Both the position numbers and the translations under genes were made by a program. DNA of 64,000 nucleotides from Heterodontus francisci (Eukaryota): positions 27,101,284 through 27,165,283 of the forward strand of contig NC_090401.1 of assembly GCF_036365525.1 (NCBI RefSeq), written 5' to 3'. This document shows positions 4,661 to 58,003 of the stretch, piece by piece. Under the pieces are notes generated by a model. It saw only the letters and a program-made list of their open reading frames with translations, made no database searches and was not told the origin of the DNA. Each line of letters opens with the position of its first letter. The first letter of the stretch is position 1.

Positions 4661-6139
4661 GCAAATGCAGCCTGTGCCACTAAAACGTCACAGTCTGCGA
4701 CGTCAGGCAGCTGCCAGGATTAAAGATGGCACTGCTCAAATAATCACGTGATGGCATCCTAAACACATGGCAGCACACAATGGCCAGGGGGGGTGGGGGG
4801 AGCGAGCGGGCCGGGAAGGGGAGGGGAGGAAGCGAGCGGGCTGGTGGGGGAGGGAGCGGGTGGGTGGGTGAGCCGCAGTCGGGGGTGGGGGGGAGGCGGC
4901 GGTGAGTGCACGGGCCTGGGGGGGTGGTGCAGTGAGTAAGCAGGCGGGCGGCAGAGGGAAGGAGGAGAGCGCAGCCGCCACCAGCATGCTCTTTGGCTGC
5001 GTTCTCCCCGCACCCGCTCTCCACCCGCTCCACACCCACACCCACTCTCTACCCGCTCCCCAGACCCCCTCTCCCCCCACCATCTGCCCGCGTTACGCGA
5101 TGATGTCATCTGCGCATGCGCCAACCAATCTTGGCACTGCGGAACGCAACGCATGCGCAGAGGGTAGGGACCAATCTGTGCATGTGTGCAGATTGGCGCA
5201 GTTGGATGATGTAAGCTGCGGGCTGCGTTGTCAGTAAACACTTTGTTGATTGAAAGGGGTTTCACTCAATGAATGTGCAACTTGTCTGTGACCTCAGTAA
5301 AAGTATATTGCAGGTGTGTAATCATTATCCAGGAAGCAGTCATGACGCATTCATTCTCGGGAACTCCCAGGTACCAGCAATATTCAGCTCCCCCACCCCA
5401 CTGCAAGTGCCTGCAAGGATGGATACTTGGCGACAGGGGTTACCCACTGAAGACATGGCTGATGACACTGGTGAGGAACCGACAGAATGAAGCAGAGGAA
5501 CAGTACAATGCGAGTCATGCGACCACCAGAGTCACCATAGAACAGACCATAGGTCTTCTGAAAATGAGATTTAGGTATCTGGATTGCTCAGGTGGTGCCC
5601 TGCAGTATTCACTAGCAAGGGTGTCTCGCATTGTTGTCTCCTGCTGCACCTTACATAAGCTGGTGCTGCAGAGGGGGAGGCCCTGGAGGATGAGGACATT
5701 GTTCAGCACGAGCCTTCCTCAGACGGGGCTGGTGAAAGGGTTGAGGAGGAGGAGCAGGGGGCGCAGCCACCTGAACGGTGGGGGGAGGGAGCTGGAGGTG
5801 TGCAGGAGTTGAGTGCATGGGAGGCTCGAACCCTCAGGCGTTCCTCCTGAATGGAGGCTCATCACCCGGCGATTGACATGTCAGTCTGAAATGAGGCATT
5901 CACATCAACTTGAAGCGCAAAAGCACTCACCTGCATTTGGAAATCTCAGCTGCAGTGGTCCACCTTTCCCTCAAACACAACAAGGCCCAAATGTGTCACC
6001 TTCCCAAGTCTCCATCTCATGCAGGACAACAGGATTGCCTAAAACATCATCATTGACTTGAGACAGAGGGAAATGCCAAGTGAGGAATCTAATAGATTTT
6101 GTGTGAAGTATAACAACAAATAAACATTTTCAAATTGCA

Positions 6140-20525: not shown

Positions 20526-20672
<147 letters not shown>

Positions 20673-27420: not shown

Positions 27421-28689
27421 GATTGTACATTTAAAACTTAACCCAATGAAAAATCAGAGCACTTTTATAAGCAAGACGGAAACCATTTTTGGCTTCCATC
27501 AGAAACTTCATACCTTTGTTTCTTGCCCCATCTCTCTTCTGAACTCAAGCTCAAGCTAAATCTATAGGTGCCAAAACCTCAATGTCCTGATCAATCCTGA
27601 ACTAAGCTTCAGTTCCCACATTGAATCCATTGATAGGACCTACTACTTTTACCTCTGGAACAGTCCACATCTATGTTCCTATCTTAAGCACACGGCCTTC
27701 ATAACCCTTATCCATGCATTTACTGCCAGAAATTTCAACTATTCCAATGCTTTCCTTGTTAGATTCCCAAGGTGATCCACAACTTTGTGTCCAGTGGCTT
27801 GTCCTCCACATCCCAGTTTTCAAATCTCTTCGTAGCCTTTTTCTGTAACAATCTCCAACCTTAAGAACCTGCAAGCAGAATGCACTCTTCATATTCTGGT
27901 CTAAAGTCAGGTCTTCTGATTTCGGTCAGTGGTCAGTGACAGGAGGGTGTGGCTGTGAGTGAGGCAGGTAAGGGTATTGAGAAGGCAGAAGTGGAGGAGC
28001 CTCAGCCCTTGCAATTGTCCAACAGGTTTGAGGTTCTTTCAGCTAATACGGGTGAGAGTGAGGGATACAGGATGGATGAGCAAACTGACCAGTGGTACAG
28101 GAAGCCATTCAAATGGGGGGAGTAAATAGGAATGTAGTGTAGTAGGAGATAGTATAGTCAGAGTGATAGACACAGTTCTCTGCAGCCAAGAGTGAGAGTC
28201 GGAAGGCTGTGTTGCCTGCCCAGTACCAGGCTTGGGACATCTGCTCAGGGCTGGAGAGGAACCTGCACTGGGAGGGGGAGGGGCCAGATGTTATGGTCCA
28301 TGTGGGTACCAACAACACAGATAGGATGAAGAAAGAGGTTCTGCATAGGGAGTGTGAGCAGCTAGGGGCTAAATTAAAAAGCAGAACCTCAAAAGTAATA
28401 ATCTCAGAATTAATACCTGATCAACAAGCAAATTGGCAGAGCGTAAATAAGATTAGAGAGTTAACTGCGTGGCTCAAAGATTGGTGTGGGAGAAATGGGT
28501 TTCGATTCATGGGGCACTGGCACCAGTACTGGGGAAAGTAGGAGCTGTACTGTTGGGATGGTCCTCACCTGAACCATGCTGGGACCAGTGTTCTGGTGAG
28601 TTGTGTAGCTAGGGTGGTAGAGAGGGCTTCAAACTAAATAGTGGCGGTGAGGAACCAAGTGAGAAAAGATGTGATAAATCATAGAGAGA

Positions 28690-29714: not shown

Positions 29715-31276
29715 ATTAGAGAATGGGCTGTTTTAAATCTGGTATTGTGTGATGAGAAAGGGCTAATTAATAATCTCATTGTGAAGAAGCCCTTAGGGAA
29801 GAGTGACCATAATATGATAGAATTTTACTTTAAGTTTGAAAGTGATATAGTTCGATCCGAAACTAGGGTCTTAAATTTATAATGGGGAATAGGAACTGGC
29901 AAAGCAACTAAACAAATACTTTGTGTCTGTGTTCATGGAGGAAAATACAAAAAACCTCCCTGAAATACTAGAGAGCCAAGTGATTAGCGAGAATGAGGAA
30001 CTGAAGGAGATTAGTATTAGCAAAAAATTAGCACTGGAGAAATTAATGGGACTGAAAGTTGATAAATCCCCTGGAACCTGATGATCTACATCTCCAGAGT
30101 GTTGAAAGAGGTGGCTGTAAAGATAGGAATGCATTAGTGATCATCTTCCAAAATTCTATAAATTCTGGAGCGGTTCCTGAAGATTGGAAGGTAGCAAATG
30201 TAACCCCCACTATTTAAGAAATGAAGGAGAGAGAAAACGAAGAACTACAGACCTGTTAGCCTGACATCAGTACTGGGAAATGCTAGAATCTATTATAAAG
30301 GATGTGATAACTGGATACTTAGAAAATAATGTAGGATTGGGCAGAGTCAATGTAGATTTATGAAAGGGAAATCATGTTTGACAAACCTTTTGAAGTTTTT
30401 TGGAGGTGTAGCTAGCAGAATAGATAAGGGGAACCAGTGGATGTGAAGTATTTGGATTTTCAGAAGGCTTTTGATAAGGTCCCACACAAGAGGTTAGTAA
30501 TCAGAATTAGATCATATGGAATTGGGGATAATATACTGGCATGGATTGAAAATTGGTAAACAGACAGAAAACAGAGAGTAGGAATAAACAGAATAAATTT
30601 TCAGGTTGTGAGGCTGAGAGTCATGGGATACCGCAAGGATCAGTGCTTGGGCCCCAGCTATTCACAAACTATATAAATGATTTGGATGTGTGGACCAAAT
30701 GTAATATTTCCAAATTTGCTGATGACACGTAAAAAAACTAGGCGGGAATGTGAGTTGTGAGGAGGATGCAAACAGTCATAGAGTCAAGGGGATTTAAACG
30801 CGCAAGTGAATGGGCAAGAACATGGCAGGTGGAAGATGATGTGGAAAAATGTGAAGTTATCCACTTTGGTAGGAAAAACAGAAATGCTAAGTATTTCTTA
30901 AATGGGGAGAAATTGGGAAGTGTTGATGTCCAAAGGGACCTGGGTGTCCTTGTGCATAAGTCAGTGAAAGCTAATGTGCAGCTGCAGCAAGCAATTAGGA
31001 AGGCAAATGGTATGTTGGCCTTCATTGCAAGAGGATTTGAGTGCAGGAGTAAAGCAGTCTTGTTGCAATTATATAGAGCCTTGGTGTAATATTGTGTACA
31101 GCTTTGGCCTCCTTACCTAAAGAAGGATATATTTGCGACAGAGGGAGTGCAACGAATGTTCAGCAGACTGATTACTGGGATGGTGGGATTATCCCATGAG
31201 GTGACTGGGCCTGTATTCTCTCGAGTTTAGAAGAATGAAAGGTGAACTCCTTGAAGTGTACAAAATTCTTACAGGG

Positions 31277-31497
31277 CTCGACAGGGTTGATACAGAAAAG
31301 ATGTTTCCCTTGGCTGGGGGGGTCTAGAACTGGGGACATCTTCTTTGGCCTCCTTATCTCGAGAGACAATGGATACGCGCCTGGAGGTGGTCAGGCGCGT
31401 ATCCATTGTCTCTCGAGATAAGGAGGCCAAAGAAGATGTCCCCAGTTCTAGACCCCCCAGCCAAGGGAAACATCTTTTCTGCATCAACCCTGTCGAG
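31277..31497. repeat. Near-perfect 221-bp palindrome (107/106-bp arms, 8-nt loop)
   Basis: 31277-31383 is the reverse complement of 31392-31497 with one mismatch and one G-run indel; loop gaggtggt. Confidence 0.98.
31340..31394 (-). mobile_element. 55-bp non-CR1 insert, probably the extreme 3' end of an RTE-type LINE
   Basis: cttctttggcctccttatctcgagagacaatggatacgcgcctggaggtggtcag interrupts CR1 at gggacat|agtctcag; its reverse complement ends in ggccaaagaag, a GAA-type tail. The RTE assignment is from recollection, not a search. Confidence 0.6.
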
Positions 31498-32099
31498 TAG
31501 TCTCAGAATAAGAGGTAAGCCATTTAGGGCTGAGAAGAGAAGGAATTTCTTCATTCAGAATGTGGTGAATCTTTGGAATTCTGCACCCCAGAGGGCTGTG
31601 GATGCTCAGTCATTGAGTCTGTTGAAGACAGAGATCGATAGGTTTCCAGATATTAAAGACATCAAGGGATATTGGGATAATGTGGGAAAATGGCATTGAG
31701 GTAGAAGATCAGCCTTGATCTAAGAGAATGGTGGAGCAGGCTCGAGCGGCCAAATGGCCTACTCCTGTTACTATGTTCTGCCCTCCACCATCATTGGAGA
31801 CTTTAGCCATCAAGCCCCTATACTTTTGCTCTGGTGCTACTTTCTTGTTTTCCCTGCCCCCTACTTCAAAAGCCTCTGCGGACTTAACTCTTCAACTGCT
31901 CAGTCACTTTCCTCCCAACATGTCTCAAAGACATCAAATGTAATCAATGTGGAATGTTTTACCATAAAAAAAAATGTGATCTTTTTCAGGATTTGATCAT
32001 ATTGCTCTAAAATAACCATACAGTTTTGCTTTGTACACCTACTATGCACAGTAGTTTGAGAAGTATTTTGAAGTAATATAAGTAACTCAACATAATTTA

Positions 32100-48695: not shown

Positions 48696-49285
48696 CTAGC
48701 AGAGACCCATAAAACATTTGCAGTGAAATCAGTATCTTTATTGCATCAGTACTTCTTTAAATACAGGATTTCTACTTATTCTTTCACCAAAGACTTTAAC
48801 AGAATCAAAACTTCTCACTCTGGAAAAAGCTACATAAAGCTGTCCCTGTGTAAAAACAGGCCTAGGAATATAAACACAAATTTTGTCAAAAGTTTGGCCT
48901 TGTGACTTGTTTATAGTCATAGAATATGAAAGTCTAATTGGGAAAACTCTTTTCTCCTAATTTGAAAAGGCAGGTTTATATCTAATGGGCTCAATATTAT
49001 TTGAGGAATAAACACTGTCTCCTTGAAATCTGCCTATGATAATTTCAGTATCTCTCATCAAACAGCTTCATATCACATTATAAGTGCTCCTTCCTTGATT
49101 GTCTAAGTTTATGCAGTGACATTCCCATTGAAGTTAGACTGTAAAAACTCTGGAGTGTATAGACTATTATCATCTTTGTTTATAGAATCAACGCTGATGT
49201 ATTCTTTAAATTCCTCTGACAGCTTTTCTAAATTTTTTTCATTCTAATCTAGTGAATCGTCATTTTTTAGCGCAAACAATTGTTT
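48696..49285 (-). mobile_element. Helitron 3' remnant: C-terminus of the PIF1-like helicase plus CTAG terminus
   Basis: [43 protein letters not shown] (48738..48920 and upstream), YTPEFLQS; minus-strand end gggtctctgCTAG|t about 40 bp after the stop. Confidence 0.88.
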
Positions 49286-54280: not shown

Positions 54281-56483
54281 AAAATTACTCTTTCAGGGCC
54301 AGTAAAGCTGTTTGGCAGTAATTATGAACTTAGTACACAGTTAAAACAAAGATATACCTCATCCAACAAGGTGTTACTTTTTTAAGGGATTTACAGCAAA
54401 ACTGAAGCATAAATGGGCAAGTTCTCATCAGTTCAATGATTTCTAATTGATTGTAGTCGTGGGGAATCTCAACAGCGCGTTCTCTGGAGAAGTATACAAT
54501 CACTGACAGCAGCTTCTAGATTTCCGTGTTTAATTGCGCCTGTGTATACTCCAGAAGTTGCTGTCAGTTTCAGAGAAATAATGACAGGGAACGCTAACTA
54601 CTTTGCCAACATTAGTACTGTAAAATACAGGCCTATCTGTTTCAAACCATAATTGCTGCCCAGCAAATGTAAGTATGTTCCAGCTACATGTGGACCTTAG
54701 GTGAGGACAGGATATAGAATGGCTGTAATGCATTCCAAGGTGTCTAATAATGAGTTGAAAGTCATCAGCCTCAATATTAAACCCCCATGCTCGATAAGGG
54801 AGGGTAAAAAAGTTAAGTGGGCCATCCCCCAGGGTGTCCTCTTGCCATTGGTGTTCAGTTTCCCCTCTCCCATACTCTCTTGCCTTGTTGGCTAAGCTAT
54901 TTAACTGGTTATCACTTGGGAAACAACGCTAAAAATGTTAATTAGATCCTGCCATTAGGATTGCCAGGACGTCCTCATCCCTGGCCTAATCAGGTTCTTC
55001 CACTGTTTTTGTTCTCATCTGTTCCTTCTCTGTAAATATCAGGGCCATTGTCTTTCTCTAATAGAGAACAGTAAAGATGTGTATGATGAAAGAGAAAAGT
55101 GCATCAGTCAGTTACGACCACATAACGCCAAATATTGGTTTTAAAGGTGTTTAGATTGTTTGAGGAAGGTGTTATGACCATAAAAACAAGAAACGCTGGA
55201 AATATTTAGCAGGTCTGGCATCATCTGTGGAGGGAGAAGCGGAGTTAATGTTTCAGGTCAGTGACCCTTGATGAGAACTGGCAGATGTAAGAAATGTAAA
55301 AGATTTTAAGCAAGTAAAGCGGGGGTGGGGCAAGAGATAACAAAAGAGAAGGCGTTGATAGGACAAGGTCACAGAATAGCTGACCAGAAGATCATGGAGC
55401 AAAGGCAAACAATATGTTAATGGTGTGCTGAAAGACAAAGCATTAGTACAGATAGGTTGTTAATGGACTGAAAACTGAACAGCAGCAAGCACAAACATGA
55501 AAAAAACAGCGGGTAGCCACAGTAAAAACAAAATTAACAAACTCAAATAAAATAAACACAAAAAAGAAAAAAAGTAACTAAAAATAAAAGTAAACAGGGG
55601 GGCCCGTTATGCTCTGAAATTATTGAACTCCATGTTCAGTCCGGCAGGCTGTAGCATGCCTAATCGGAAAATGAGATGCTGTTCCTTGAGCTTGCGTTGA
55701 TGTTCTCTGCAACACTGCAGCAATCCCAGGAGAGATGTGAACATGAGAGCAGGGTGGGGGGTGTTGTTGAAATGGCCAGCAACCGGGAAGCTCATGGTCA
55801 TGCTTTCGGACTGAGCAGAGGTGTTCCGCAAAGTGGTCACCCAGTCTGCATTTGGTCTCCCCAATGTAGAGGAGACCACATTGTGAGCAGTGAATACAGT
55901 ATACTACGTTAAAAGAAGTACAAGTAAATCACTGCTTCACCTGAAAGGAGTGTTTGGGGCCTAGGATAGGCCTCTGCCAGTCCCCATCCACCGCCACCTT
56001 CTTCTGCATGGCTGAACTTGTTCTTACATTGAACAACTTCTCCTTCAATTCCACTCACTTCCTTCAAGTAGAAAGTGTTGTTATGGGTACCCGCAAGGAC
56101 CCTAGTTATCCCTGTCTTTTTGTGGGATATGTCGAACATTCCTTGTTCCAGTCCTGCTCAGGGCCCCTCCCCCAACTCTTTTTCCAGTACATTGATGACT
56201 GTATCGGTACTGTTTCCTGCTCCCGCCCTGAACTGGAAAACTTTATCAACTTTGCTTCTAATTTCCACCCTTCTTTCACCTTTACATGGTCCATGTCCGA
56301 CACTTCCCTCCCCTTCCTTGACTTCTCTGTCTCCATCTCTGGGGATAGGCTGTCCATTAATATTAATTATAAGCTCACCGACTCCCACAGCTACTTCAAC
56401 TACACTTTTTCACACCCTGCCTCCTGTAAGGACTCCATTCCATTATCCCAGTTTCTCCATCTCCGACACATCTGCTCTGATGA

Positions 56484-56790: not shown

Positions 56791-57869
56791 CCATGTGCTA
56801 CCTTGCATGACAGCGCTTCTGATATGTCTTCCTTTTTCCTCAACTGAGGAATCCCCCCCACTGTGGTTGACAGGCCCTCAACCATGTCCGGCCCATTTCC
56901 CGCACCTCTACTCTCACACCTTCCCCTCCCTCCCAGAACTGCGACAGGGTTCCCGTTCTTACTTTCCACGCCATCAGCCTCCATATCCAAAAGATCATCC
57001 TCCACCATTTCCGCCAGCTCCAGCATGATGCCACTACCAAAGGCATCTTCCCCTCCCTTCCCCTGTCAGAATTCTGAAGGGATTGTTCCCTCCGCGAAGC
57101 CCTGGCCCACTTCTCAATTACCCCCACTACCTCGTCCCCTTCCCACGGCACCTTCCCCTGCAATCGCAGGAGGTGTAATACCTGCCCATTTACCTACTTC
57201 TTTCAATGTGATATATTGTATTTGCTGCATACAATGTGGTCTCCTCTACATTGGGGAGACCAAATGTAGACTGAGTGACCACTTTGCGGAACACCTCCGC
57301 TCAGTCTGAAAGCATGACCCTGAGCTTCCAGTTGCTGGCCATTTCAACACTCCCCCCTCCTCCCCCACCACCCCCCCCCCCCCACCCCCCTAACCCCAGT
57401 GCTCTCATGCTCACATCTCTATCCTGGGATTGCTGCAGTGTTCCAGTGAACATCAACGCAAACTCGAGGAACAGCATCTCCTTTACCGATTAGGCACACT
57501 GAGGCCTGCCGGACTGAACATTGAGTTCAATAATTTCAGACCATGATGGGCCCCCCATTTTGCTTTTATTTTCAGTTATTTTTTTTCTTCTTTTTTGTAC
57601 TTTTAGTTTGTTCATTTTGTTTCTACTTTGCCTGCCCACTGTTTTTTTCATGTTTGTGCTTGTGGCTGTTCAGTTTTTTCAGTCCATTAACACCCTATCT
57701 GTACTAATGCTTTGTCTTTCAGCCTCCCATTCACATATTGTTTGCCTTTGCTCCATGACCTTCTGGTCAGCTATTCTGTGACCTTGTCCTATCAACACCT
57801 TCTCTTTTGTTATCTCTTGCACCCCCCAGCTTTACTTGCTTAAAATCTTTTACATTTCTAATATTTGTC

Positions 57870-57906
57870 AGTTCTGAAGAAGGGTCACTGACCTGAAACG
57901 TTAGCA
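57870..57906 (+). ncRNA. Minimal hammerhead ribozyme motif in the PLE 3' region (degenerate mirror copy at 55243-55279, - strand)
   Basis: agtt CUGAAGA a [gggtc-act-gacct] GAAA cgUU agca: catalytic core and palindromic ACGU intact; stem I weakened. Confidence 0.75.
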
Positions 57907-58003
57907 TTGCTTCTCTCTCCACAGATGCTGCCAGACCTGCTGAGTATTTCCAGCAATTTTATTTCAAATTTCCAGCATCCACAGTATTTTGCTTTTATTT
58001 TAG

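Follow-up and report, generated by a model that had tools for sequence, protein, structure and literature searches.

A 221-bp palindrome in the genome of the shark Heterodontus francisci, very probably left by self-priming of a LINE cDNA during its insertion

Introduction

Junctions at which a DNA end folds back and primes synthesis have been described in several systems. Insertions made in human cells with the R2 protein (PRINT) include snap-back 5' junctions as a low-frequency class: according to the accessible parts of both reports, further synthesis, templated by the cDNA or by adjacent target, starts from the cDNA 3' end ahead of 5' junction formation (PMC11371274, PMC11331408). Snap-back repair also takes place at breaks without any retrotransposon. 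In SD-MMEJ, as the available text describes it, a short inverted repeat primes a limited, non-processive synthesis, the strand then unwinds and anneals by the new microhomology, a longer inverted repeat is left, and local hairpins influence the outcome (PMC5728401). For L1, the accessible portion of a preprint describes two inverted flank duplications primed by a 2-bp self-annealing hairpin, with the target duplication preserved; they lie at the reciprocal end and involve genomic DNA only (bioRxiv 10.1101/2024.12.14.628481). Zebrafish ZfL2 LINEs carry extra bases at their 5' joins, templated by flanking genomic or LINE DNA, which the accessible sections explain by the annealing of two ends, a hairpin-defined hot spot being absent from these sections (PMC4760211, PMC4245944). 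The consulted part of PMC2912911 held nothing relevant, and a search of the openly accessible literature, judged from its listings, found no description of hairpin hot spots or of natural self-primed palindromes.

We analysed a palindrome located in a stretch of 64,000 nucleotides of H. francisci DNA, hereafter the window, which contains no N. As in the R2 insertions, a cDNA 3' end seems to have primed synthesis; unlike them, the shark case is natural, lies in an assembled genome and concerns an RTE-like family inserted at scattered sites. Moreover the shark synthesis spans the whole cDNA and enters the target, which the accessible parts of PMC11371274 and PMC11331408 do not explicitly describe for R2. 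The priming by a short inverted repeat is shared with SD-MMEJ, but the shark tracts reach about 100–430 nt, and it is a retrotransposon cDNA that forms the broken end; the self-annealing hairpin is shared with L1, but the shark fold sits on the cDNA end; and with ZfL2 the likeness is in junction bases templated by flanking or LINE DNA. The class of snap-back junctions is already known, and what this locus appears to add, judging from its sequence, is a natural case in an assembled vertebrate genome.

Results

Structure of the palindrome and of its surroundings

The features are as follows, in window positions.

20553..20665, + strand: exon encoding a CUB domain, with AG...GT splice sites, from the likely host gene; Pfam CUB match slightly short of the cut-off (E 5e-4)
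30035..31339, + strand: left part of the host LINE, presumably CR1-type; left limit approximate; 66–82% matches to other copies in the window; RVT_1 fragment at 30550–30729
31277..31339, + strand: copied target segment, the outer 63 nt of the left arm; its 3' end would be the primer nick
31340..31394, − strand: 3' end of a LINE that we take to be RTE-like: 51-nt 3' UTR with a short GAA-type tail, then the stop codon plus a single coding base; the cDNA corresponds to the + strand
31381..31394, + strand: fold point; 3-bp stem of 31381–31383 with 31392–31394; 8-nt loop
31395..31435, + strand: 41 nt newly copied back from the cDNA, without difference from the left arm
31436..31497, − strand: 62 nt of the CR1 target copied in inverse orientation, with the ancestral base and run length retained
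31498..31498, + strand: single T, a 1-nt target duplication or an added base
31499..31790, + strand: right part of the host CR1, resuming at the insertion site

The left arm (31277–31383, 107 nt) and the right arm (31392–31497, 106 nt) are separated by a loop of 8 nt. Their alignment, over 107 columns, contains one mismatch (31292, A versus G) and one gap in a G homopolymer: the palindrome is real and its arms differ by one substitution and one homopolymer indel, as the initial annotation had reported. The sizes proposed there, i.e. an insert of 55 nt, a primer stem of 3 bp and 62 nt of copied target, hold as well, the back-copy amounting in total to 103 nt that are the reverse complement of the cDNA and the adjoining target. 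As RNA, 31250–31520 folds at −225.8 kcal/mol (z −27.9), none of 200 shuffles being equally good. The stem at the fold point is itself weak (+0.6 kcal/mol, rank 193 among 2070 positions).

The host element (30035–31790) was thought to be broken and then rejoined past the palindrome, and its relatives bear this out: both flanks are contiguous within 0–1 nt in 15 of 17 alignment rows, a contiguity that is approximate as the relatives are 70–87% alike. No target bases were thus lost, and at most one T (31498) was duplicated or added. The final join shows 0–1 nt of microhomology or duplication and no clear target-site duplication. At the substituted site the relatives mostly carry G, and their homopolymer run is of 6 nt. 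They match the right arm in both respects, so that both differences must have arisen later, in the left arm.

The palindrome is probably intronic, a position deduced from the CUB exon upstream. This exon matches the CUB domains of cubilin and neuropilin (a PDB search returned only other CUB proteins) and presumably belongs to a CSMD-like gene; a motif scan of the window did not pick it up, and the 191 filtered ORFs of the window contain no second exon of the host gene. Elsewhere in the window we noted DDE_Tnp_4 transposase fragments (5254–5809, + strand, E 8e-18), likely from a Harbinger-type DNA transposon, and inverted repeats at 55195–55735 and 57418–57954, 85–94% alike and about 2 kb apart. 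Two matches are weak and below the cut-off: a superfamily-1 helicase C-terminus (48741–48956, − strand), possibly a Helitron remnant, and a GDSL-like hydrolase (28170–28538, + strand), possibly a LINE ORF1 remnant.

The inserted LINE 3' end

A search of the 6.0-Gb genome with 31336–31397 gave at least 41 matches, with 40 of the 799 candidates scored; over 58–59 nt, nine loci besides this one are 100% identical. The normal element sequence continues exactly at the fold in 27 of 29 other loci; the remaining two end a few bases later. This agrees with the prediction that the 55-mer is a LINE 3' terminus from which the locus diverges at the fold. The native 22-mer spanning the fold has 50,682 exact matches in the genome, hence a family of at least that number of copies. 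These are mostly 96–97% alike and variably 5'-truncated with a common 3' end (75 visible 5' ends, at 80 to 3596 nt), and their 3' region has a 51-nt UTR and GAA/GAAA-type tails that vary in length. The longest ORF terminates 54 nt before the 3' end in 13 of 27 loci, and the ORF upstream on the same strand is a reverse transcriptase (RVT_1, E 7.7e-32 in locus L006; a DUF6451 match is below the cut-off); the 55-mer therefore corresponds, as cDNA, to the LINE 3' UTR, the stop codon and one coding base. A short 3' UTR with a short simple-repeat tail is, we assume, a feature of the RTE clade, whence our label.

The initial annotation had left the choice between a recent event and homogenised arms. 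The former suffices, the LINE family being young enough for two differences in 107 nt; homogenisation is not needed, one substitution in 107 nt suiting such a family.

Recurrence in the genome

Two outward-facing 3' ends were sought by pattern searches with limited spacers and exact anchors, so that the numbers of loci are lower bounds. One search retrieved 10 loci including the palindrome, all of them head-to-head; eight carry a copy of their own flank, of about 17–265 nt; two of these flanks are tandem repeats and less certain. Further events are L036, L041–L043 (one event in three copies), L112, L113/L114 (one event) and L223, which brings the distinct head-to-head events to at least 15, i.e. 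14 besides the palindrome. L223 (L223:1084-1940) is an 857-bp palindrome, 99% matched, made of the last 445 nt of the element; its flank is not copied. L041 and L112, whose arms are 90–94% alike and whose flank is not copied, could be double insertions.

Four events fold at cDNA nt 55: the palindrome and, with this breakpoint and a complete second arm in each case, L224/L031, L226 and L036. In L224, L229, L230 and L036, target-site duplications of 12, 10, 43 and 11 bp respectively come directly after the second arm, which points to a fold made in the course of insertion.

Long fold-backs are uncommon: some 15 were detected in a family exceeding 50,000 copies. Among 90 copies picked by position, an inverted copy reaching 11 nt is present at none of the 75 visible junctions, the swapped controls giving the same result; in 39 of the 75 the best target-site-duplication match is 7 bp or less. 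Shorter events were found at the same fold point, with back-copies of 4–6 nt in L035, L037 and L038. Of 56 non-native junctions at nt 55, about 50 are plain truncations and three have a 4-nt back-copy (about 0.25–0.5 by chance, estimated by hand), which suggests that a few percent of the nt-55 truncations snap back. No special role of the stop codon at the fold point was apparent: truncation there (about 0.25% per nt, an estimate) does not exceed that at a control site.

Other irregularities were seen in the sampled family. In L046, L094 and L081, the extra bases of the 5' junction are partly copied from the element's own cDNA; L044, L053, L206 and L211 have internal deletions between short repeats.

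Junctions at cDNA nt 445

In a sampled copy, L123, 7 nt are copied back at a native hairpin (5-bp stem, 3-nt loop) that ends at nt 445 and ranks 5 of 2070 positions in energy; the 857-bp palindrome of L223 is folded at the same hairpin. A genome search for non-native junctions at nt 445 gave 177 matches, of which 100 were listed; five of these, by eye, are native copies with a small deletion. Among the remaining 95 listed junctions, the first base is the one templated by the hairpin in 66 (by eye), for a background of 28–34%, and the match extends to two bases in 34, three in 10, four in eight and five in three. A count by script agrees: 23 first-base and 11 two-base matches in the first 30 listed rows. 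As the third base is not in excess (10/34), most extensions would be of 1–2 nt; part of the first-base bias could come from untemplated addition or from a preference for certain targets. In nine loci at least five bases match: the back-copies are of 5, 5, 7, 12, 19, 37 and about 430 nt, with one duplicate and one locus of another geometry, and those of 7, 12, 19 and 37 nt end in 2–3 nt of microhomology with the target duplication. A 24-nt inverted piece was also observed at this hairpin (L217:1495-1951), its loop oppositely oriented; it may be twin priming.

As a control we took a site at a distance of 20 nt that lacks a hairpin but ends in the same five bases: it yielded 14 matches, and 2–3 of the 10 examined were true junctions. 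Of 69 copies, 11 conserve the anchor of this control and 63 that of the nt-445 site, and the corrected enrichment is roughly 8-fold, an estimate with a range of about 3–25. Two trivial origins of this excess find no support. The native base follows the hairpin in 96 of 99 cases, which rejects a subfamily with another base. As for a single 445-nt master element, a tree of 33 of the 39 hot-spot loci (excluded were a repeat, a native locus and four whose 3' end was not located) and 69 ordinary copies needs 23 changes, against a shuffled mean of 26.3 (49 of 500 as low), and the nt-445 copies are scattered among the ordinary ones. Among unbiased junctions, 4 of 69 end in a stem of at least 5 bp for 0.5 expected, and eight in a stem of 4 bp for 2.7, two of these stem-ending junctions being the nt-445 discovery site itself. 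Together these counts are suggestive of a 5'-truncation hot spot at the hairpin, without settling it.

Discussion

We consider it very probable that the palindrome arose from cDNA self-priming during target-primed reverse transcription. The element endonuclease would have nicked the old CR1 at 31339 and reverse transcription proceeded over 55 nt, where it ended by a stall or by the end of a truncated RNA. The RNA once removed, the cDNA 3' end would have paired with itself over 3 bp, and a polymerase (candidates are Pol theta, Pol delta and the RT) would have copied back 41 nt of cDNA and then 62 nt of target that was exposed or displaced. [quoted passage not shown] The same scheme had been proposed initially; its core is strengthened by the junction positions and by the sister loci, but the stall it assumed is one option only, a truncated RNA fitting equally well. 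The junction positions suggest that fold and insertion were one event. We count against this that the locus, unlike four sister loci, has no clear target-site duplication; about half of the ordinary copies are alike in this respect. The weak 3-bp stem, the low share of back-copies at nt 55 (3 of 56) and the lack of long inverted copies among the 75 unbiased junctions also weigh against it, and an empty allele was not encountered.

The same sequence might have been reached otherwise. A plain short insertion could have come first, the fold-back being made afterwards by a template switch or a double-strand break inside it: plain truncations at nt 55 do exist, as does snap-back repair at breaks independent of retrotransposition (PMC5728401, accessible text). 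A later event, however, would have no reason to respect the insertion points, whereas the return occurs exactly at the insertion site here and just before the target-site duplication in the four sister loci; this order of events is thus disfavoured, and we regard it as unlikely. Quite improbable is a cDNA end covalently joined to the opposite target strand as a hairpin and nicked open 62 nt into the target, the outer arm being then the original DNA. Such a route yields an identical final sequence, and hairpin intermediates have been invoked for L1 rearrangements in the portion of the preprint available (bioRxiv 10.1101/2024.12.14.628481), but it requires nicks 5–265 nt from the junction, and the nt-445 back-copies of 7, 12, 19 and 37 nt ending in 2–3 nt of microhomology are what synthesis and release predict.

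That the palindrome is an assembly or library fold-back artefact is very improbable, even though the contig records do not fully cover its centre or right junction. In one short-read sample, possibly the assembly's own, contigs X1 and X3 hold 31301–31360 without differences (the 7-G version of the left arm) and X2 and X4 hold 31429–31475 without differences (the 6-C version of the right arm); these pieces are below our 31-letter bridging rule, the centre and 31481–31494 lying outside contig coverage, a gap that is no evidence of absence. Two sites distinguish the arms, and the short-read contigs contain both versions; the CR1 is re-entered exactly and sister loci have target-site duplications. 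A native MITE-like hairpin element, or two separate head-to-head insertions, is scarcely credible. The low arm identity and uncopied flank of L041 and L112 recall double insertions, but both explanations leave aside the inverted copy of the locus's own flank; the flanks, which form the outer arms, differ between loci, and Rfam has no family matching the palindrome. In twin priming, the inverted piece derives from RNA upstream of the first piece; here the second arm carries once more the 3' end already present in the first, together with target, not upstream RNA, and a twin-priming 5' inversion is rejected.

Self-priming during insertion, which we retain for the palindrome, may have a wider bearing: terminal cDNA hairpins might help to set LINE 5'-truncation points, and self-priming be a routine finish of insertion, the palindrome then belonging to the long tail of the usual additions of 1–2 bases. 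On this proposal we are evenly divided. If it is true, the genome holds hundreds of natural records of where the snap-back starts and how far it reaches into the target, and further hot spots would be predicted at nt 264, 273 and 1215.

The product is likely a neutral intronic scar with no function; use as an ADAR or Drosha/Dicer substrate or as a cruciform site, suggested initially, is hypothetical. The locus itself is probably inert, and its value lies in the class it represents and in the possible hairpin-set hot spot. A junction type known from engineered R2 insertions and from L1 in cell and cancer genomes would also be natural, and persist in an assembled vertebrate genome; the lengths of copied target (5–265 nt) gauge how far the target opens during insertion. 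If the nt-445 hot spot holds, the question of where LINEs are truncated would become testable by altering one hairpin, and the answer would bear on template design for retrotransposon-based gene insertion.
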